This document shows, piece after piece, positions 1-45,123 of a stretch of DNA of 64,000 nucleotides. Position numbers and translations under genes: made by a program. The DNA is from a virus. The notes beneath the pieces are model-generated. The model saw only the letters and a list, made by a program, of their open reading frames with translations, had not been told where the DNA came from and made no database searches. The number at the start of each line of letters is the position of its first letter. The first letter of the stretch is position 1. The stretch lies in the UHGV virus genome UHGV-0200554; one strand, written 5' to 3'.

Positions 1-113
1 AAGGCGGCGCGGATGATTTTGCAAAAAGGTACGGTTTTAATAATGCCAACGAGATGATCGAGGCGGTTGTACTCCAGGCAGAAGAAGACTACGCAGAAAG
101 GGCGCTTGGTTAA
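1..113 (+). CDS. 3' end of an upstream gene (partial, C-terminal ~36 codons ending ...QAEEDYAERALG)
   Basis: Open frame from window edge to TAA at 111-113; no function assignable. Confidence 0.25.
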   Translation, partial: GGADDFAKRYGFNNANEMIEAVVLQAEEDYAERALG

Positions 114-156
114 TACACGGGCCGAAAGGCCCACCACACAAAGAGGAGTAAAAATT

Positions 157-351
157 ATGGCACTTAAAAAATTAACTGAAAAAACTCGTTGGGATATGAT
201 CGACGGGGAAGTCTATATTTTCGCCCGTAAACCTGGCGATCAAAAATGGGTAAAAGCGTTCACTTGTCACCCTGCTGTTATTGACCTCATTAAAAGTAAA
301 GGCCTACGTGAAGCAGTGGCACGTAGTCTATTAATCCCTTGCAAAGAATAA
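157..351 (+). CDS. small hypothetical protein (64 aa; track ORF 67..351 probably over-extended 5')
   Basis: ATG at 157 preceded by AAAGAGGAG RBS; followed by intrinsic terminator. Confidence 0.5.
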   Translation: MALKKLTEKTRWDMIDGEVYIFARKPGDQKWVKAFTCHPAVIDLIKSKGLREAVARSLLIPCKE

Positions 352-373
352 TATAACTGACGAAATAATAAGA

Positions 374-398
374 GGCCGCAAATAAGCGGCCTTTTTGT
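374..398 (+). terminator. rho-independent terminator (GGCCGC-loop-GCGGCC + T5)
   Basis: GC hairpin followed by TTTTT read directly in sequence. Confidence 0.6.
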
Positions 399-1059
399 TG
401 TCTGTAGTATAGTGAATCCGGTATTCAAAACAGCGGATCATTCCGCGAACGCTATGCGTGATGTGTGCATAAAATAAAATGCCTATAAATTAACCACACC
501 ACAAAAAAGCTGTATGTGCATACATAGTTTTTAAGTTTTTTCAGTTTTCAGCTGTCAAATGTGGGGCATTTTGTGAAGTATCTCACACTTTTCGGCTGAT
601 GCACATTTTATATAGCTATGTCAACAACTATAAATCTTTATAAAACAGTAAGTTACAAAGTCCATTTTTTGAAAAATCGGGTATAACTATAGGCGCGAAA
701 TTCTATTTTTCACGTAGCGTCACGATAAGATGTATCTGATAGGTATGTTTTAATTATGCAATATTAATGCATAACCAACATGTGATAAATATTCTCAACA
801 ACCCGGCAGATGTATTAAATATGGTGACTATTCCACCCCACATTATTTCAGACGGCAACTATTCCGATGTGTGATTAATATACTTTCAGGCGGTGATTAT
901 TCTGTATCTCAATAATCTATATAATATAATATTAGTAATATAATTAGATTATGAGATACAAGAAAACATCTAAAATAGTAAAATTACAATTAATGAAAAT
1001 ATATAAATTGCATAAAATAAAATAAGACAAATAACAATTTGCGAATGCAATGATCACAA

Positions 1060-1481
1060 TATGCAACGATAACATGGCGCGACCGGAGGGAGCGACATAA
1101 TAACGCTGAGTGACAATAACACCCCCGTGTTATTATCCAGCATTATTATCTCGCTAATTTATGATTATCTCATAAATTAACATGTAATAATCCTCAGCGT
1201 TATTATGTCCTCCAATAACAATAAAAATTGTTATGGTAACGCTGAGTTATTACTATGTTAATAAAAGGGCATAAAGCCCGGTACTATGTACCATTAAATA
1301 ATCTAAAACGATTACGTTTTCTCAGCGTTATTGTGTCAAATGTTATGATAACAGTATATAATTATCTTGCTAACTTTCAGTATACATATTCCGCGTAGCG
1401 TCATGTGGAGCGTGTAGTAAACCTGTAGCAAGATAAGAATAACGCTGAGGTATTGTACCGTATGCAACGATAACATGGCGC
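1060..1481. repeat. iteron block: 21-bp direct repeats TATGCAACGATAACATGGCGC at 1060-1080 and 1461-1481 flanking five copies of ATAACGCTGAG in alternating orientation (about 1095-1110, 1193-1209, 1237-1246, 1321-1337, 1438-1449)
   Basis: Exact repeats read in sequence; includes 17-bp inverted pair GACATAATAACGCTGAG / CTCAGCGTTATTATGTC. Confidence 0.6.
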
Positions 1482-1645
1482 AACTATAACAGGCCTAAAG
1501 AGTAAGATAAACAATAGTTTATGTGTATAATCGGCGGGGCCTCCTGGCTGCGCTGTGTGAAACTATCATGTATGGAAACAGTCCAGGATGTTATGATTTC
1601 AGCATGGGATTGTGTGTTTTTGAATTGTGTACGGGTAAACTGTGT

Positions 1646-1701
1646 GGGGTAAGTATAGGGGAAGTATAGGGGAAGTATAGGGGAAGTATAGGGGAAGTAT
1701 G
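1646..1701. repeat. tandem array of ~5 copies of 11-bp unit GGGGAAGTATA
   Basis: Head-to-tail copies with one-helical-turn periodicity; no spacers, so not CRISPR. Confidence 0.7.
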
Positions 1702-2008
1702 CCTAACAAATTTCGTTCTTTTTGTCAACAATTTTTCTATGAAAGTGGTCCGACCAGTTATAAGATGCATCTACGGAGCATGTTATGTAGCTGGTATGGT
1801 AGTGTGCCAGTGCAATATGATGCCCGGTCATAGCTTGTGTGGTGTACCTGTTACACCAGTAAATAGAATTAATAGCAGGCTAACTACTACAATGATTAAT
1901 CTTTTAGTGCTGTAATAAACCGCAATTATTCTCCTTTCGATTGTTTTCGTTTCCTTTCGTTTCTTATCGTTTGAGCTGTGTTTTATTCCGCGTAGCGTCA
2001 TGCTGAGC

Positions 2009-2048
2009 TGTGGATAAGTCTGTGGATAACCCTGCCTCCTGTGGATAA
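2009..2048. promoter_or_regulatory. three perfect DnaA boxes TGTGGATAA (reverse complement TTATCCACA) at 2009-2017, 2021-2029, 2040-2048, same orientation
   Basis: 9-mers match the E. coli DnaA box consensus exactly; clustered within 40 bp. Confidence 0.65.
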
Positions 2049-2911
2049 CTGGCCTGCTATGCCTGCTGTGTGGTACTATTGAACTACTGTACAAATGATC
2101 ATAAGTGCGTATAATCGGTGTTACGTATGATGAACAATACGAAGTAATAATTATTCCCACATGAGAAGGCTTATCATTTACTTAAATGTTGCTGTGGAAA
2201 ACTGTAACGCATGTTATTATTCAACCCCACACAATGAGGGCGTGAACAGTCCCCCCCTATAATCACTGTGTGCAACTATTAATCACTGTGAGTAACTACC
2301 ATGCAATAACTAGGCCAATGGTCGCAAGGCCCCGGCTATCAATTGCGTAAACAGCCTCGATATTTGAGAATCATTCGCATTATGAGAAGGAGTCGCGTTT
2401 CGCCTGCCTAATACCTCAGATGTGAGTCTGGGTGTATCGGCCCCGCACTACCCCTGCTTCAGGACAGGACCTGCGGTCCGGTGACAACAACTTGTTGTGC
2501 ACCATTGAGGATATTTGCCCCGGTTTGTATGAATACCTCTTCAGGCTGTGTACCTCCCCGTAGGGGGGGTATGGTGAGAGGTAGTACGAATAAAAAAAAA
2601 ATGAAGCCCTCTTCAGGCCTGTGATATTTGTGTGGCTGATATTTGTGGGGAATCCAGTATTTACGGGACTCCTGGACAGGGCGGGGAGGTATACACAAAG
2701 GAGGTATTATGTTAAAGATATGTTAAAATATGTGGTGCTCTTTAGGCATTATTCTTCAATGAAATCAAGTGCTTAGGCTATGTGTGGGTATTTTCTGTGA
2801 ATAATTGGCATGTTAATCGGATCAAAGAGGATTAAAGAAGGGAAATGATTTGACTCTTCATGCCACTTGTGGTATATTTTCGATACTGGTAAAGGGGGTT
2901 CGGAGGTCAGG

Positions 2912-3286
2912 ATGTTTGAGTTCAAAGCTGATGCTCAGGAGTTCTACAACAAAGTTGCTAAGCCTGTTGTGGAGTCTGTTCAGGAACACCCTGCAAGCAG
3001 ACCTACTTCTGTGGGGATAAAAGGTGTTAGCAAGTACTACAGAGGTAAACATGTGTATTACAGGGCTTACATCTGGGTAACACGCCACACTGTGAACAAG
3101 CAGTTGATCAAAACGTTTAAAACTCTGGAAGAAGCTGTAGCTCAAAGGCAGGAATGGGAACAGGTGAAGGATATTTTGGACGGGAAAGTAGCGATGGTAT
3201 TACCTTTTGAATGGGATATGGTGTATGCTTCTAAATACTGGGAAGTTTATCATGGAATGGCTCAGGAGCAGGATGAAGATTATTAA
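2912..3286 (+). CDS. stand-alone AP2-domain DNA-binding protein (homing-endonuclease-associated type)
   Basis: GGAGG RBS before ATG 2912; AP2-like signature (KGVSKYYRGK..YRAYI..KTFKTLEEAVAQRQEW); no HNH motif. Confidence 0.5.
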   Translation: MFEFKADAQEFYNKVAKPVVESVQEHPASRPTSVGIKGVSKYYRGKHVYYRAYIWVTRHTVNKQLIKTFKTLEEAVAQRQEWEQVKDILDGKVAMVLPFEWDMVYASKYWEVYHGMAQEQDEDY

Positions 3287-3801
3287 TGGACCGTGAAGGT
3301 CCGGCATGTAATGCCAGTTTATGGAATGTAATTTGTAGGCATGGAAGCTATTATTTTGCTTAGCTCTGTAATGATTAGCAGGCTGTGTGCTACAACCTTG
3401 TTGTACCTGAATCCTTAGGTTTCTAATGATTAGTTTGCTAAGTATTTATATGTGCCTAACCCCCTACCCCCGGTTCTAGTCTCCCCAACAACGCTGGTAC
3501 TTAAACTCTACCGTTATTGTGCCTTACTGCCCATATTACATCGCAGTTGGCTGGTCACTATAACCGCTCCCGCTCTCCAACCTCGACAAGCTCGTGCGAT
3601 ACTCCATTCATTCGGATGTTCACGCTGTTCACTCAGTCGATATTCCCCTATCTCCTTCAATCCGAAGAGAGAGAAACCCAGAATCGTATTCTGGAAAAGA
3701 GAGAGAAGATCTAAATTATAGCAGGAGATGAGAGGAATTGCAATATGGAGGATACCTACCAGAATTGGTAGGCATATGTGGACAGCACTTATTGACAAAA
3801 A

Positions 3802-4029
3802 CTACTCCGTATCGATATCTACCTCTGTGCCTTCCTCAGGTACAGATAACATAGCCATCTGTAGAGCTTCCTCCCAGTTAGTGCGCTCAGCCTGAGCCAC
3901 CAACTCATCCGGGTCTTTACCCAATGCTTCAGCTAACCGAGATACATAGAGTACACCAGGGAGAAGTTCAGGATCAAATTCAAGATAGAGAATCCCATCC
4001 CCATCTTCTGTGAAAAGCTCAAGTCGCAT
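3802..4029 (-). CDS. hypothetical acidic protein (75 aa)
   Basis: ORF in co-directional leftward gene block. Confidence 0.45.
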   Translation of the reverse strand: MRLELFTEDGDGILYLEFDPELLPGVLYVSRLAEALGKDPDELVAQAERTNWEEALQMAMLSVPEEGTEVDIDTE

Positions 4030-4284
4030 ACTGGCTCCTTATGTTGACTTCATACAGGTTGTACGATGCCTAAAGAGTGAAATTACTTTGTCTCTTCAGG
4101 CAACAGAGCTTGCGATTGTTGTGGATGTGTGGGCAGAGAAGCTACATAGTAGTGAATAGCTCCACGACATACTACAACAGTATGCATATCATTGTGACCG
4201 CTCCAGCTACACACAATATAGCACTTATGATTGCTAATGAGAACAGGCAGTAGCTGATAGCTGTGTCTGTAATATCACTTACCC

Positions 4285-4500
4285 TCATACGCTTCTCCTT
4301 GTTGCTCTTGCTACTTCAAAATAGTCTACATATCTTGATTCTTGCAGGATACGATAGCCTTCCCTATCTGCGTCTTCGATTGTGTGGAAGCGATCTCCAA
4401 GCTCCATACGCTCACCAGATTGTAAAACAATTATCAGCTTGTACATAGACCCTCCTTCATAATGCAAACTGATAATAGCACAGACAGGAGAAGGAGTCAA
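4285..4500 (-). CDS. hypothetical protein (71 aa)
   Basis: ORF in leftward block. Confidence 0.4.
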   Translation of the reverse strand: MTPSPVCAIISLHYEGGSMYKLIIVLQSGERMELGDRFHTIEDADREGYRILQESRYVDYFEVARATRRSV

Positions 4501-4742
4501 GCATAAACCGTGAAGAAAATAGATTATTTTCTGAGCAGTGAAGGTAAGGCTGGAAAAATTTTGGACAGCTCGCCGCTGGCGAGGAAATGTACAGACCCCC
4601 CCTAAAACGTAATAAGAGGGCCTGTAATGGGTTTTTAGGTTAGGGTAGGGTGTTTGCTCAAGTTCTTGCGAAAAATGCGTCAGAATTGCATCTAGGCCCC
4701 TTAAATTTGAAATCTGAGGTCTGTTTTTAGTCTTAGGGTCCT

Positions 4743-4958
4743 CTAAAAGTCCTCCCTTTCACGAAGTATTTTAGTGAACCCTTCAAGCCAGGTAGTGTCT
4801 GTGATCATATCAAGATCCTGTGCAAGTGCACGTCTGACGTTCCTTTTATGCACCGCAGTTAGTGTTACCCAAAAGTCCAGAGGCATGTTGGCTAGACAAG
4901 AATTGTCGAAAGGGTAATTATGCACCTTACCTTCAGAGCAGAGCACACTGAAATCCAT
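4743..4958 (-). CDS. hypothetical protein (71 aa)
   Basis: ORF in leftward block. Confidence 0.4.
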   Translation of the reverse strand: MDFSVLCSEGKVHNYPFDNSCLANMPLDFWVTLTAVHKRNVRRALAQDLDMITDTTWLEGFTKILREREDF

Positions 4959-4974
4959 TTGGCATCACCTCCGA

Positions 4975-5265
4975 TCACTTATGATCAGCGTCGTAGTCTT
5001 TCCAGGGGAGAAATTCGCAATCAAGGCCGGGGGCAACAACCTCACCAGTAGTAAGACCTTGCAGGAAGATAGTCTGCCCAGTTTCTGTAACGATGCATTC
5101 AAAATTCCTCTGATGGGCATAAAGCACCGTATAGATCTCGCCGAGGTACAACCCTTTGATACCGCCTGTTTTTACGCACATGACGCTCATAAGAGGGTAT
5201 AAACCTTCTTCACAAGTTAGTTTGCTCAGTTCTCTCATAGTGTATCTCATTGTGTCCTCCATCAT
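4975..5265 (-). CDS. hypothetical protein (96 aa)
   Basis: ORF; 4-nt overlap with next gene suggests coupling. Confidence 0.45.
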   Translation of the reverse strand: MMEDTMRYTMRELSKLTCEEGLYPLMSVMCVKTGGIKGLYLGEIYTVLYAHQRNFECIVTETGQTIFLQGLTTGEVVAPGLDCEFLPWKDYDADHK

Positions 5266-36717: not shown

Positions 36718-36832
36718 GGGCCATTATTTGGCCCTTAGAATTCAGTTTAAGGGCCATTATTTGGCCCTTGGAAGCGTTTTAAGGGCCATTATTTGGCCCT
36801 TGGATTGACTTTTATGGGCCATTATTTGGCCC
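36718..36832. repeat. four tandem 17-bp palindromes GGGCCATTATTTGGCCC (36718-34, 36751-67, 36783-99, 36816-32), 32-33 bp apart
   Basis: Exact copies; each can form a 6-bp stem hairpin or a dyad-symmetric protein site. Confidence 0.7.
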
Positions 36833-37024
36833 TTAGAATCACTCATATTGGTGGGATTTATGGTATTTTCTGTTTATTGTCAAACAGTTATAACAGTATT
36901 TCATTCTGTTGGTATCTTTATATAGACCGATCAGTCTATTACAACTATTTAACAAATGCCGACACTGTACAAAATTTCTGAGTTTTCATGTTTGACATTT
37001 CGTTAACAAATCACCAATACAGTA

Positions 37025-41398: not shown

Positions 41399-41691
41399 GG
41401 TGGTTACTTGCATTAGCGATTGCACTCACGTTTTCTATGGCCCTGGTAGGTTGTAGCTCACCTAAAAGTACGCCAGTTACAGTTGCACCGCAGAAAGTTG
41501 AACAACTTGCTGTAGAGCCTCCTGCGGCAGCTATGATCCCACCAGCAATAGCTATCCCCTTGGTGAAAGGTGCACCAGATGCGGATAACTCTGCAATTAT
41601 GAGGCAGAACAATCTCTCCTGTAGCAATGATCGTGCCAAATTAATCATCTTGCAGGATTATGTAAAATCTTTATTCAATAAGGAGAATTAA
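41395..41691 (+). CDS. o-spanin (Rz1-like outer-membrane lipoprotein)
   Basis: Signal peptide with lipobox LVGC, Pro-rich mature part. Confidence 0.55.
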   Translation: MRWLLALAIALTFSMALVGCSSPKSTPVTVAPQKVEQLAVEPPAAAMIPPAIAIPLVKGAPDADNSAIMRQNNLSCSNDRAKLIILQDYVKSLFNKEN

Positions 41692-42806
41692 TGGCTAAAA
41701 TGTATGGCCCATGCTCCCGTAAACAACAAATGATTCTGGAAAATGATGCCGACTTCCTGATCATTGGTGGGGCAGCGGGTTGTTTGTCAATGCGACATGA
41801 GGTGATGACACCTAACGGGTGGATCAGAATATCGGAATGGGATGGTCAAGATATCCTCCAGTTTGATAAAGAAACTGGTAAGGCCATGTTTATCCAGCCT
41901 GAAGAGTTTGTTAAGCTGGAATGCGACAAACTAACCAGGATTGTGCAGGATGGTATTTGTCAGGAATTATCCGACGAGCACACAGTTCTGTACGTCCCAG
42001 AAGACGGAACAGCTTACGGTACACTTAATTTCGGAGAAGTGGCTGAACAGTATGCTAACGGTGAGTTGGCAATGCGTATGCAGACCACGTTTGTGAACAT
42101 GGGTGGTACTGGCCTTGGCATTTCTGACGAAGAGCTGAAAGAAAGGGCAAGATATTACAAATTCACAGATGAGTGGTATAATTGTGATCGTCGTCAGTTG
42201 TTGCAGATCTGGTATGAGATTTACCTGAACGGTAATGATCCCCATGCCTACGTTGTTCCAACGAAAGAACAGGCTGATTTCTTGCAATACCTCGGATCAT
42301 CTTTAGGTTTCAACGCACAGATCTTCTTCGAAGAAGGTTACAAAGTTGTGTTCTCTAATGAACGTGCAGGTACGATTGCTCTTAATAACGATGCAACGTT
42401 CGAAGAGTTTGAGCCGGAAGATGGTTACAAATATTGTTTTGCTACCACAACAGGCTATTTTATCACCAGACTGGAAAACTGCATTGCAGTGACTGGTAAC
42501 AGTGGTAAATCCTTTCTTCTACAGCTTCTCCCACTAAAGATGATAGATGACCCCAACACTTCTGTGGTGATGTTCCGTAGGACAACTCCACAACTGGAAG
42601 GTGAAGGTGGTCTGTGGCCTAAAGCACTGAGTGTGTATCTGGATCTTCCTGAGTACATGAGGCCGAAATTCAGAGAGAAAGACCATAAGTTTACTTTTCC
42701 ATATTATGATGCAAAGACGGGCAAATGGAATAAGAAAAGAGACGGAGCAGTAATCAAATACTGCCATATGGAATACGTCCAAGATAAGCTGAATCATCAA
42801 GGGTAA
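41691..42806 (+). CDS. terL: terminase large subunit, exon 1 (ATPase N-terminal part; contains intein; ORF runs into intron to first stop)
   Basis: P-loop split as IIGGAAG / SGKSFLLQ around a 240-aa insert; true 3' exon boundary undetermined. Confidence 0.7.
   Translation: MAKMYGPCSRKQQMILENDADFLIIGGAAGCLSMRHEVMTPNGWIRISEWDGQDILQFDKETGKAMFIQPEEFVKLECDKLTRIVQDGICQELSDEHTVLYVPEDGTAYGTLNFGEVAEQYANGELAMRMQTTFVNMGGTGLGISDEELKERARYYKFTDEWYNCDRRQLLQIWYEIYLNGNDPHAYVVPTKEQADFLQYLGSSLGFNAQIFFEEGYKVVFSNERAGTIALNNDATFEEFEPEDGYKYCFATTTGYFITRLENCIAVTGNSGKSFLLQLLPLKMIDDPNTSVVMFRRTTPQLEGEGGLWPKALSVYLDLPEYMRPKFREKDHKFTFPYYDAKTGKWNKKRDGAVIKYCHMEYVQDKLNHQG
41781..42500 (+). mobile_element. intein (~240 aa) inserted in the terminase Walker A motif
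   Basis: Insert begins Cys (CLSMRHEVMTPNGWIRISEW, block-A-like), ends ...CIAVTGN followed by Ser; excision predicts GGAAGSGKS. Confidence 0.55.
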
Positions 42807-43331
42807 ACAAACCTGCCCTTCGTGCCTAATTCGGTGAAACTCCTTGACAAAAGGACAATACCGAGCTACGGTTAAAGGATTAGTTGAAACCGAGTGTAAC
42901 GACTATCCCCGATGAGTGTAGGGGAGTAGAATCACAAGCGATTGGTGATCCAAACGGCACGCCAAGGAGGGAAGAGCTAGTCTGTTCCACATGGTAACAT
43001 GTGGCGGGTGTCTTAGCACACCGCGTCGGAGTAGCGATCCGGCGGGACAAAAGTGGAATATACTTTAATATGTTTTGATGAGGGTTAACTGGTAGCTCTC
43101 GTAAAACCTCCCTAATTGCGGGGAAATCTTTACTATTGACACCACCAACCTATTATGGTAACATAATATTGGCTTCGGAGAAATACCGAAGGTATGGTAA
43201 TAGCGTGTTGATTTAGATAATCCGCAGCGAAGCATCCTGATAGGATGTGTGCTCAACGACTATCGCTTACGGGCGTTAGGGCCAAGCGGCTGGGGAAACC
43301 CACAGTCTTTTAAGACTGCCGAAACGGGAGG

Positions 43332-43625
43332 ATGGGAATGTGTAAAACTAAAAAATGTGTAGATTGCCAGAGAGTCCTACCTCTTGAGGATTTCTTTTTA
43401 TCTTCTAAGAGTAATGATGGGTACTCTGGTACATGCAAGGAATGCTATATGTACTACAGAAAGAATGGATCTCGTAGAAACAAGGATATGGTTAAGAGAG
43501 ATGATGCAGCAGCGTTTATTCAAGATTTGCTAGAGAAAGGTGAGCTTTTTGAATGCAAATCTTGTCATAAAAGTATGCTCGCTGACAATTTTACACAAAA
43601 CGTGATTATGGTAGGGTATATCTAG
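43332..43625 (+). CDS. intron-encoded Cys-rich zinc-binding ORF (possible N-terminal part of the homing endonuclease)
   Basis: CxxC pairs; directly upstream of HNH ORF in another frame. Confidence 0.35.
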   Translation: MGMCKTKKCVDCQRVLPLEDFFLSSKSNDGYSGTCKECYMYYRKNGSRRNKDMVKRDDAAAFIQDLLEKGELFECKSCHKSMLADNFTQNVIMVGYI

Positions 43626-43642
43626 TCACGGGCAGGTGTAAA

Positions 43643-43927
43643 ATGTGTGAGAAGTTCTATCAGCTTGAGAAGAAATTTCACATAACAAAAGACGAATATT
43701 TTCGTCTACTCTCAGATCAAGATTATAAATGTGCCATTTGCGGGATATCACTTGATGAGTATAGGTCGCAAGGGTACAGAGATTTCTTTAGTGTTGATCA
43801 TGACCATAAGACTGGCGCTGTAAGAGGTTTGCTTTGTGATAAGTGTAACAGAGCTTTAGGTTTTTTCCAGGAGGATGAGGAAACTCTTCTTAAAGCGGCA
43901 GAGTATTTACACACTCATAAGATATAG
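43643..43927 (+). CDS. intron-encoded endonuclease VII-type HNH endonuclease
   Basis: DHDHKTGAVRGLLCDKCNRALG signature; stop codon overlaps intron S element. Confidence 0.6.
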   Translation: MCEKFYQLEKKFHITKDEYFRLLSDQDYKCAICGISLDEYRSQGYRDFFSVDHDHKTGAVRGLLCDKCNRALGFFQEDEETLLKAAEYLHTHKI

Positions 43928-44043
43928 TCTGGTCTGCATGGAGACATGCAGCTGCCACATGGTGGCGGGGCAAGAGTAGCGACCTTGCCCGAACACAAAC
44001 GACACAGTTCGATTGGGAGCAAATCGACTACCTGATTTCTCGT

Positions 44044-45123
44044 ATGAGGTCGAAATCGAAATACTCTTCACGGATGGTGATCAGCTGTAACCCGGATTCT
44101 GAACACTATTTAGCCAAACTGGTTCGTTGGTGGCTTGACGACGAGGGCTACCCAGATGAAAGCAAGTGTGGCGTTAAGCGCTATTTCATCCGTAGGGATG
44201 GGGAATTTATCTTCGGCGATACGCCAGAAGAGTTGATCGAGAAGTATACCTATGTTAACGGCAAAGGTGTTGAGATAATCCCAAAACCACTCTCTATCGC
44301 TTTTATCGGTGCAACAATCCACGATAACCCCATCTGCTTGCGTGATAACCCAGAATATCTTGCATTCCTGGAAGGTCTGCCAGAGCTGGAAAAAGCACAA
44401 CTCCTCTACGGTAACTGGTTCGCTAAGCCTGAAGGTGCAAACTATTTCAGTCGCACATTCTTGAAAGATGCGGATCATGTCCCCCTCGGAGCAGTTTCTG
44501 TAAGAGCATGGGATAAAGCTGGTACAGAACGTACCTCTGGCAACAAATTCCCCGACTATACAGCCAGTATCAAGGTCAGTAAGGATAGTGATGGTTACTA
44601 CTACATCTCCGGTGACTATTGCCCTGAAAACGTAGATGATGGCAGATATTCTACGGGCTTGCACGGTAAGTTCTGCAAGAAAGCTGGGGAACGTGATGTT
44701 ATTATCAAGAAACAGGCAGAGTTTGATGGTGAGGACTGCGTAATTGTCTTCTCTGTGGACCCCGGTCAGGCAGGTAAGAGTGAGTTTCTTACTTCATCTC
44801 GTAAACTTCTTGCCGGAGGGTTCAGGGTAGAAGAAGACCCAATGCCGTCTAACAAATCAAAACTCACCCGTTTCTCCCCGTTTGCCAACCTTGCCCAACA
44901 AGGGATGGTGCGGCTTGTCCGGTCAAGTTTCGACCCGGATACACTGGAAGCATTTTTGACAGAGCTGGAGAAATTTAACGGCGAACGGTCAACCTTTAGC
45001 CGTAAAGATGATTGGGCTGACTCCATTGCTTCTGCAATTAACTACCTTGAAAAAGAGGAAGTTGCTATGCCATGTGTTATTCCGAAGATTGTTTCACCCT
45101 CTATGTATAAGAGGATGATTTAA
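44044..45123 (+). CDS. terL: terminase large subunit, exon 2 (ATPase end and nuclease domain; true 5' exon boundary is upstream of this ATG)
   Basis: YLISRMRS...VISCNP and acidic nuclease-like C-terminal region; frame open upstream to ~43921. Confidence 0.7.
   Translation: MRSKSKYSSRMVISCNPDSEHYLAKLVRWWLDDEGYPDESKCGVKRYFIRRDGEFIFGDTPEELIEKYTYVNGKGVEIIPKPLSIAFIGATIHDNPICLRDNPEYLAFLEGLPELEKAQLLYGNWFAKPEGANYFSRTFLKDADHVPLGAVSVRAWDKAGTERTSGNKFPDYTASIKVSKDSDGYYYISGDYCPENVDDGRYSTGLHGKFCKKAGERDVIIKKQAEFDGEDCVIVFSVDPGQAGKSEFLTSSRKLLAGGFRVEEDPMPSNKSKLTRFSPFANLAQQGMVRLVRSSFDPDTLEAFLTELEKFNGERSTFSRKDDWADSIASAINYLEKEEVAMPCVIPKIVSPSMYKRMI

Follow-up and report, generated by a model that had tools for sequence, protein, structure and literature searches.

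The closest known architecture to the repeat array described in this study is that of the arrays beside the terminal repeat of coliphage T7. These arrays, which flank the terminal repeat, are said to have been named SRL and SRR by Dunn and Studier in 1983, and we know of no settled function for them. In the T7 genome (NC_001604, read directly), we found about twelve copies of CCTAAAG with a period of 12-13 bp, beginning 15 bp beyond the 160-bp terminal repeat, and more CCTAAAG copies ahead of the right-hand repeat. Two other phages provide what are, by analogy, the closest mechanistic models. At the pac site of phage P1, a 6-bp element is clustered to either side of the position cleaved for packaging; P1 packages by the headful mechanism, and its cleavage is controlled by methylation. 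In phage lambda, the small terminase binds several short elements (cosB) cooperatively beside cosN and positions the nuclease (PMC13595911).

The DNA analysed here is a viral stretch of 64,000 nucleotides, hereafter the window. Tandem Repeats Finder detected an 11-bp tandem array at 1647-1700 with 4.9 copies, 97% matches and a score of 101, the second-highest among the tandem repeats of the 64-kb window. The letters from 1640 to 1710 read CTGTGT GGGGT AAGTATA GGGG AAGTATA GGGG AAGTATA GGGG AAGTATA GGGG AAGTAT GCCTAACAA. As a feature, the array spans 1647..1701 (no strand assigned) and consists of five head-to-tail 11-bp units of GGGGAAGTATA, three of which are perfect (1658-1668, 1669-1679 and 1680-1690), with one mismatch each in the first (1647-1657, GGGTAAGTATA) and the last (1691-1701, GGGGAAGTATG). 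It can equally be described as five AAGTAT hexamers at 1651, 1662, 1673, 1684 and 1695, spaced by 11 bp. The internal units lack the GCC that follows AAGTAT in the copy at the boundary discussed below. Five tandem copies at 1646-1701 had been reported in the initial annotation and were confirmed, the coordinates being good to 1 base, since base 1646 is an extra G ahead of unit 1. Its statement that the array is not CRISPR-like also holds, because the units are contiguous and 11 bp long, whereas CRISPR repeats are ~24-48 bp with unique spacers. The array is beyond chance: GGGGAAGTATA with at most one mismatch had 8 matches in the window against 0.63 expected, five of the 8 lie head to tail, and none of 100 shuffles had 8 matches. 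The highest-scoring tandem repeat of the window is a different one, at 36718-36839, with 3.7 copies of the 33-bp unit GGGCCATTATTTGGCCCTTAGAATTCATTTTAA; each unit holds a GGGCC...GGCCC hairpin, and the repeat lies near a divergent-transcription switch at ~38 kb.

Since the 11-bp period is near the helical repeat, the array could be an intrinsic bend, in which a slightly bent unit is iterated once per helical turn, and a DNA-bending array had indeed been proposed. Curvature was computed with a dinucleotide wedge model, and the figures are indicative only. The T-rich tract that follows the array was predicted to be curved (1710-1734, 17 degrees per turn, top 5%). The array itself, however, had 4.9 degrees per turn (regional median, 5.9) and was less curved than 78% of arrays made of shuffled units. 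In addition, the unit contains no A-tracts. The bending proposal was not borne out, and we regard it as extremely improbable.

By sequence similarity, the window is assigned to an rV5-like (Vequintavirinae-related) myophage. Its structural genes at 44-60 kb showed ~75% nucleotide identity to Vequintavirus (rV5-like) phages, and its first 4 kb shared only short matching pieces with them. The array sits inside a large ORF-free region typical of rV5-like phages. Genes converge on this region, with a strong bidirectional terminator at 370-395 and minus-strand genes starting near 3800, and the ORF-poor stretch is syntenic with an unannotated 2.4-kb gap in phage EmilHeitz. Positions 1-2000 are AT-rich (37% GC) and repeat-dense, and the strand bias switches there. 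The drawing of the rV5 genome has a box "labeled non-coding", without ORFs, at the corresponding region, and a skew change was seen at this box, where an origin could not be defined (PMC3606486). Two ORFs overlap the array (1523-1669 on the plus strand and 1591-1770 on the minus strand). Because neither had Pfam hits and the lengths of the homologous segment differ among relatives by non-multiples of three, the array is considered non-coding. An Rfam search of 1-5000 at E-values up to 1 gave only sub-threshold chance hits, none of them at the array, and a structured single strand at the array was rejected with a DNA fold z-score of 0.21.

The homologous segment of EmilHeitz, when searched against phage records, was found at the very start of several Vequintavirus records and was present twice. 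The Gotham record has a repeat_region annotated at 1-459 and 136567-137025, and exact repeats of 459, 459 and 458 bp with identical boundaries form both ends of the GenBank records of Gotham, HdK5 and YN3, respectively. Terminal redundancies of 458 bp have been described for EdH4 and HdK5 (PMC6563267). Furthermore, KPP-1, which belongs to another genus of the subfamily, has a 514-bp direct terminal repeat (DTR) at 116,316-116,829, supported by twofold coverage and PhageTerm, and its packaging is T7-type (PMC9862379). Taken together, these records and papers show that the non-coding box of the rV5-like group contains the physical genome ends. It should be noted that the rV5 genome was earlier described as circularly permuted (PMC3606486) and that PhageTerm made a headful call in one recent Vequintavirus paper. 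In the record of Shigella phage CM1 (L017; MK962749.1, 105876-107348, reverse complement), there are two copies of the boundary: one copy of the terminal repeat ends (...CCGTCCGCC) and passes directly into 64 bp of repeat array, after which another copy of the terminal repeat follows. Either array and DTR are truly duplicated in tandem, or the doubled coverage of the region led to an assembly artefact.

The ends of these relatives were mapped onto the window with a MAFFT alignment of eleven boundary contexts (below, a slash marks a cut). The left boundaries of the Gotham-type phages (Gotham, HdK5, YN3) and of KPP-1 shared one column, 17-18 nt upstream of an invariant TTGTCAA. This column corresponds to 1704/1705 of the window, ±1 nt, and the array ends at 1700 or 1701, i.e., 3-4 bp before it. 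In window orientation, the left contexts read ...ATTATGTCA/GACAAGTTTTTCTCCTCTTTGTCAAG in Gotham, ...GTATTGCTA/AACACAATTCTCTCTCCTTGTCAAG in KPP-1 and ...AAGTATGCCT/AACAAATTTCGTTCTTTTTGTCAAC in the window, where homology places the predicted boundary, and with it the terminus-generating cut, at 1703..1705 (no strand assigned). The right contexts read ...CGCCTGCC/TAATACCTCAGATGTGAG in the window, ...GTCCGTC/TAGCACCGCAGATGGTGAG in KPP-1 and ...CCGTCCGCC/TGGCAGC in Gotham. Aligned to the KPP-1 and Gotham contexts, the right boundary of the window is predicted at 2408/2409; the window's TAATACCTCAGATGTGAG matches the TAGCACCGCAGATGGTGAG of KPP-1, which lies immediately outside the published KPP-1 DTR. 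From this homology across a genus-level distance, we infer that the window phage has a DTR of ~704 bp at 1705-2408 (no strand assigned). The heptamer TGCCTAA, which occurs 12 times on both strands of the 64 kb, lies on the plus strand across both predicted boundaries, at 1700..1706 (kept in all six sequences of the lineage) and at 2405..2411 (conserved in relatives), and this is a good internal consistency check. Within the predicted DTR, the conserved block at 1705-1770 contains TTGTCAAC (1722-1729), the palindrome TGGTCCGACCA (1746-1756) and GACCAGTTATAAGATGCAT (1752-1770).

Close relatives of the window were found by pattern scans on the conserved flanking blocks and not on the repeat itself. 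The scans gave three IMG/VR contigs and three true metagenome contigs, which represent five distinct sequences (L004 and L007 are identical across the array region and were counted once), or six including the window. A further metagenome match (L006) was a chance match in unrelated coding DNA. No match was obtained by megablast of 1200-2400 against phages, by an exact two-unit search in IMG/VR or by a boundary-block scan of genome contigs; a distant blastn search with 700-2350 returned nothing beyond one 32-bp piece at chance level, and a second anchor in IMG/VR gave no additional loci. The flanks of the relatives were 77-87% identical to the window, and the array lies in a segment that is hypervariable, with a strongly conserved block on either side.

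Immediately ahead of the invariant GCCTAACAAATT, the window carries four copies of AAGTATAGGGG followed by AAGTAT. At the same place, L002 has AAGTATGGGGT AAGTAT, L003 has GGTATGCCTGG GGATTGTGGT AAGTATGCCTA AAGTAT, L004/L007 has GAGTATGCCTA AAGTAT, L005 has ...AAGTATGCCCC GAGTAT, and L008 has a degenerate AAGKAT/GGAT/TATA expansion of ~95-120 bp. RAGTAT thus recurs at 11-bp spacing directly ahead of GCCT/AAC in five of the six lineage sequences, with spacers of GGGG, GGGGT, GCCTA or GCCCC and with 2 to 5 or more copies; none of the six has fewer than two. The last repeat copy and the boundary-proximal bases (1695..1704, no strand assigned; AAGTATGCCT) have counterparts in Vequintavirus (AGTATGTCA) and KPP-1 (GTATTGCTA). 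In the window's own lineage, RAGTATGCCT is kept right before the conserved block in the same proportion (5/6), L008 retaining only ...TATGCCT.

Similar repeats were found at this boundary across the group. Every relative examined except KPP-1 has short direct repeats that end at the boundary, in 2-7 or more copies with a period of 8-11 bp, and their core is kept (AAGTAT in the window lineage, TGTCA in Vequintavirus), whereas they vary in spacer and in copy number. The 40-70 bp ahead of the boundary in 11 Vequintavirus genomes consist of 3-7 copies of RTTRTGTCA at a spacing of 8-11 bp, the last of which ends exactly at the cut. For example, the repeats read ATTATGTCA ATCGTGTCA GTTATGTCA CAGTATGTCA ... 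CAGTGTGTCA/GACAAG in YN3 and AGTGTGTCAC TATTATGTCA TATTATGTCA CAGTATGTCA/ in CM1. KPP-1, a more distant relative, has no more than one or two copies of the motif before its boundary, so an array is not obligatory in the subfamily. The array of the window is a local, recently expanded form of this group-wide feature, of which we found no description for Vequintavirinae in the literature searched.

A second, distal class of repeats (GTGRAAACAGT-like) lies 60-150 bp outside the predicted boundary, with variable copy number in both lineages. The window has two or three copies on the plus strand outside the DTR (1557..1643), namely GTGAAACTAT at 1557-1566, ATGGAAACAGT at 1572-1582 and GGGTAAACTGT at 1633-1643. 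L002 (reverse complement, about 120-170) has at least three copies of TGTGGAAACAGTTG, and at the corresponding place in Vequintavirus, GTGTAAACA or GTGAAyAGT is repeated 3-6 times, with five or six copies in Gotham. The distal repeats are better conserved across genera than the proximal ones and may be the true recognition element. In L009 (reverse complement), the class lies upstream of the boundary.

Judged from sequence comparison, the array most likely helps, or at least marks, the cutting and packaging of DNA. Its position relative to the boundary, the conservation of its core, the variability of its spacer and copy number, and its match to the boundaries measured in relatives are direct observations. 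The explanation that we favour, tentatively and with somewhat less than even confidence, is that the array is the boundary-proximal repeat block of the concatemer junction and a landing pad with several sites for the machinery that generates the termini or packages the DNA. Replicating DNA would then run from the unique right arm through the distal GTGRAAACAGT repeats and the five AAGTAT repeats to the cut at 1704/1705, and from there through the ~704-bp DTR and the cut at 2408/2409 into the unique left arm. The AAGTAT copies, about one helical turn apart, would offer several contacts on the same face of the DNA to an oligomeric DNA-binding component of this machinery, a putative small-terminase-like protein. 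Docking of this component would place the nuclease at the last copy, where GCC(T)/AA replaces the G-run spacer. Copy number would be non-critical, and replication slippage could let it drift at little cost, which would account for both the near-identical copies here and the 2-7 or more copies in relatives. We identified no gene for a small terminase or another protein that might bind the array.

The initial annotation had read the 11-bp period as one helical turn in a phased array for protein binding. Such binding is plausible, as AAGTAT at 11-bp spacing precedes the same conserved block in five of six sequences and the site aligns with the terminal-repeat boundary of relatives. However, strict phasing by one helical turn is weakened by the 8-11 bp periods of Vequintavirus and by the irregular expansion of L008.

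A large terminase is present at 41691-45123. It consists of two separate ORFs (41691-42806 and 44044-45123), over which PHROG terminase profiles cover the N-terminal and C-terminal parts, respectively, with ~1.2 kb between them; the first ORF starts with a weak PhoH-like match. The split suggests an intron, an intein or a homing-endonuclease insertion.

The array resembles those of T7 in several respects. Both lie beside a short exact DTR, predicted in the case of the window, and they agree in position relative to the repeat boundary, in unit size and in being non-coding. Like T7-type arrays, in which a motif of 6-13 bp is repeated within a few to tens of bp of a boundary, the window's repeats are short, direct and non-coding and lie just outside a boundary derived from homology, and repeats occur at the same position in six lineage sequences and eleven Vequintavirus genomes. 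However, the two differ in motif, in period (13 bp in T7 versus 11 bp here) and in phage family (podovirus versus rV5-like myovirus). T7 also has clear arrays on both sides, with motif copies inside the repeat as well, whereas the array of the window was found on one side only.

Like a terminase site, the repeats of the window lie beside a cleavage site, as judged by homology to the measured termini of relatives. The role proposed for them resembles that of lambda cosB, where several short recognition copies lie beside, and not at, the cleavage site. Lambda, however, has 12-nt cohesive ends and no terminal repeat, its longer sites do not follow one another in strict tandem, and protein binding, which we infer for the array, has been demonstrated there. 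The 6-bp element of P1 pac recalls the 6-bp core AAGTAT kept in the array, but P1 packages by headful and the array is one-sided.

Variation in copy number bears on a different explanation, in which the array is a slippage repeat in length-tolerant non-coding DNA, neutral and without function, and its place at the boundary is incidental or reflects a spot that tolerates insertions. The initial annotation had named freely varying copy number with no phenotype as the sign of neutral slippage. Copy number indeed varied from 2 to 5 or more, up to the ~95-120 bp expansion of L008, but it never fell below two in the window's lineage; in the more distant KPP-1 it is about one. Three to four of the window's copies are identical, which implies a recent expansion; recent local duplication is the obvious reason for such near-identity, and the near-perfect copies point to recent slippage rather than to maintained sites. 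Spacers also vary freely among close relatives, the messy expansion of low complexity in L008 is at the same place, KPP-1 copes with about one copy, and the alignment of the window with L008 breaks exactly at the array, which is hypervariable between conserved blocks. On the other hand, two diverged lineages have repeats of different units at the same position, always ending at the boundary, the core hexamer persists despite changes in the spacers, and a second class of repeats lies just upstream in both lineages. We consider neutral slippage doubtful, and it stays a serious rival because copy number varies freely and KPP-1 is nearly without an array.

Two further explanations tie the copies to the end-forming reaction itself. 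In the first, the copies are ruler or decoy sites within the cutting mechanism, which would be read together with the distal GTGRAAACAGT repeats and TGCCTAA, and new copies would be made by the end-forming reaction; this seems unlikely to us. In the second, which we regard as very unlikely, the array is a by-product: its units would be cut-proximal copies left by errors in generating termini or duplicating the DTR, and thus a scar and possibly a set of alternative cut sites. The unit always includes the sequence preceding the cut, and the arrays end exactly at the boundary. Moreover, the duplicated 11-mer AAGTATGCCTA of L003 and L004 contains the putative cut heptamer, resulting in two TGCCTAA copies 11 bp apart. 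However, DTR formation is not known to involve any duplication of sequence outside the repeat, the same pattern is explained by simple slippage, and the internal units of the window lack the TGCC part.

The predicted DTR also contains three perfect DnaA boxes (TTATCCACA) on the minus strand at 2009..2048 (2009-2017, 2021-2029 and 2040-2048), which raises the question of whether the array could be a set of origin iterons. In this case, a phage or host initiator would bind the repeats and open the DNA together with the boxes ~310 bp away. In the PLE satellite, the repeats of a large non-coding region act as origin iterons (PMC7145576). The array shares with such iterons, for example those bound by PLE RepA, the direct repeats, the large non-coding region and the nearby DnaA boxes. 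The boxes lie within 40 bp, and the 64-kb window has no other perfect copy; L002, L003, L004 and L007 have all three, L008 has two perfect ones, and the L005 contig stops after the second. The region, moreover, is ORF-free, AT-rich and repeat-dense and lies at the switch in strand bias. Typical iterons are 17-22 bp long, however, and the 11-bp unit with its 6-bp conserved core is much shorter. There is no adjacent initiator-like gene: Pfam searches of six flanking or overlapping ORFs gave nothing significant (many small ORFs lack an assigned function), and a PHROGs search of the single ORF tested, at 2867-3286, gave no match. In addition, the array follows the DTR boundary, with single-base precision, and not the DnaA boxes. 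The gap in EmilHeitz has no DnaA boxes even though Vequintavirus has repeats at the boundary, and thus repeats and boxes do not seem to be coupled. Origin iterons fit the array less well than the packaging models, and we consider them quite unlikely; the DnaA-box cluster at 2009-2048 may itself be a host-DnaA-dependent origin or a regulatory site.

With five G4 runs separated by 7-nt loops, the array could also serve as a structural signal by folding into a G-quadruplex in RNA or single-stranded DNA. Positions 1658-1694 are the sole canonical quadruplex motif in the 64-kb window (at least four runs of at least three G, loops of 1-7 nt), and the array has the highest G4Hunter score of the window, 1.84. 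Herpesvirus packaging signals can form quadruplexes, pac1 being a T-rich element flanked by G-rich sequence (PMC13595911). The array is like pac1 in its quadruplex potential and in that G-rich sequence adjoins a T-rich tract at the cleavage site of a terminal repeat, but its G-richness is limited to the window phage and absent from relatives. The G runs are not conserved: spacers are GCCTA or GCCCC in L003, L004 and L005, only two G runs are present in L002, and the Vequintavirus arrays are not G-rich. Because relatives lack the G runs, the quadruplex motif is probably incidental, and a quadruplex as the reason for the array is highly improbable.

The array is a familiar kind of feature and not a new kind of system. 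Our analysis suggests a concrete anatomy for the rV5-like "non-coding" box, which has been unexplained since 2013: a short DTR, conserved cut contexts, and variable arrays of short repeats just outside one boundary. If correct, this anatomy would fix the genome ends of an uncultured lineage to exact coordinates and identify candidate packaging signals in a phage group with wide use in typing and therapy, and the repeat copy number would provide a simple test bed for the generation of terminal repeats. The array also explains the assembly and alignment breaks at its site.

Several other elements were observed in the same region. Just upstream of the array, 1060-1484 is dense in further repeats: the 12-mer AATAACGCTGAG is found at least five times within 1094-1450, in both orientations, among them an inverted pair at 1094/1193 that is perfect over 17 bp, and the 24-nt direct repeat TATGCAACGATAACATGGCGC occurs at 1060 and 1461, its homologue being present twice in EmilHeitz and Gotham as well. 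Two promoter-like sites of the extended -10 type, nearly identical to each other, were found at 1522-1534 and 2106-2118 (TGTGTATAATCGG and TGCGTATAATCGG). The second is inside the predicted DTR and directed into the unique left arm. A sigma-70 promoter at the array was rejected: the extended -10 at 1522 falls in a ~32-bp insertion that is absent from L002, L005 and L008, and at the correct spacing from the TTGACA conserved on the minus strand (1728-1723), only TAGGCA is present. Further along, a plus-strand ORF of 139 aa (2867-3286), with a good promoter-like site upstream (2850-2878), interrupts the otherwise ORF-free region; it is missing from the EmilHeitz gap and partially conserved in L004 and L008. 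A by-eye guess that it encodes an AP2-type DNA-binding protein was supported by neither Pfam nor PHROGs, which gave no match. Finally, the ORF-less stretch at 3440-3726 is conserved, with identities of 78% to EmilHeitz and 95% to L008. It begins with the C-rich run CCCCCTACCCCC (absolute G4Hunter score of 1.8 at 3446-3463), terminates at a minus-strand terminator-like hairpin (3695-3677), and may be a non-coding RNA or a regulatory element.
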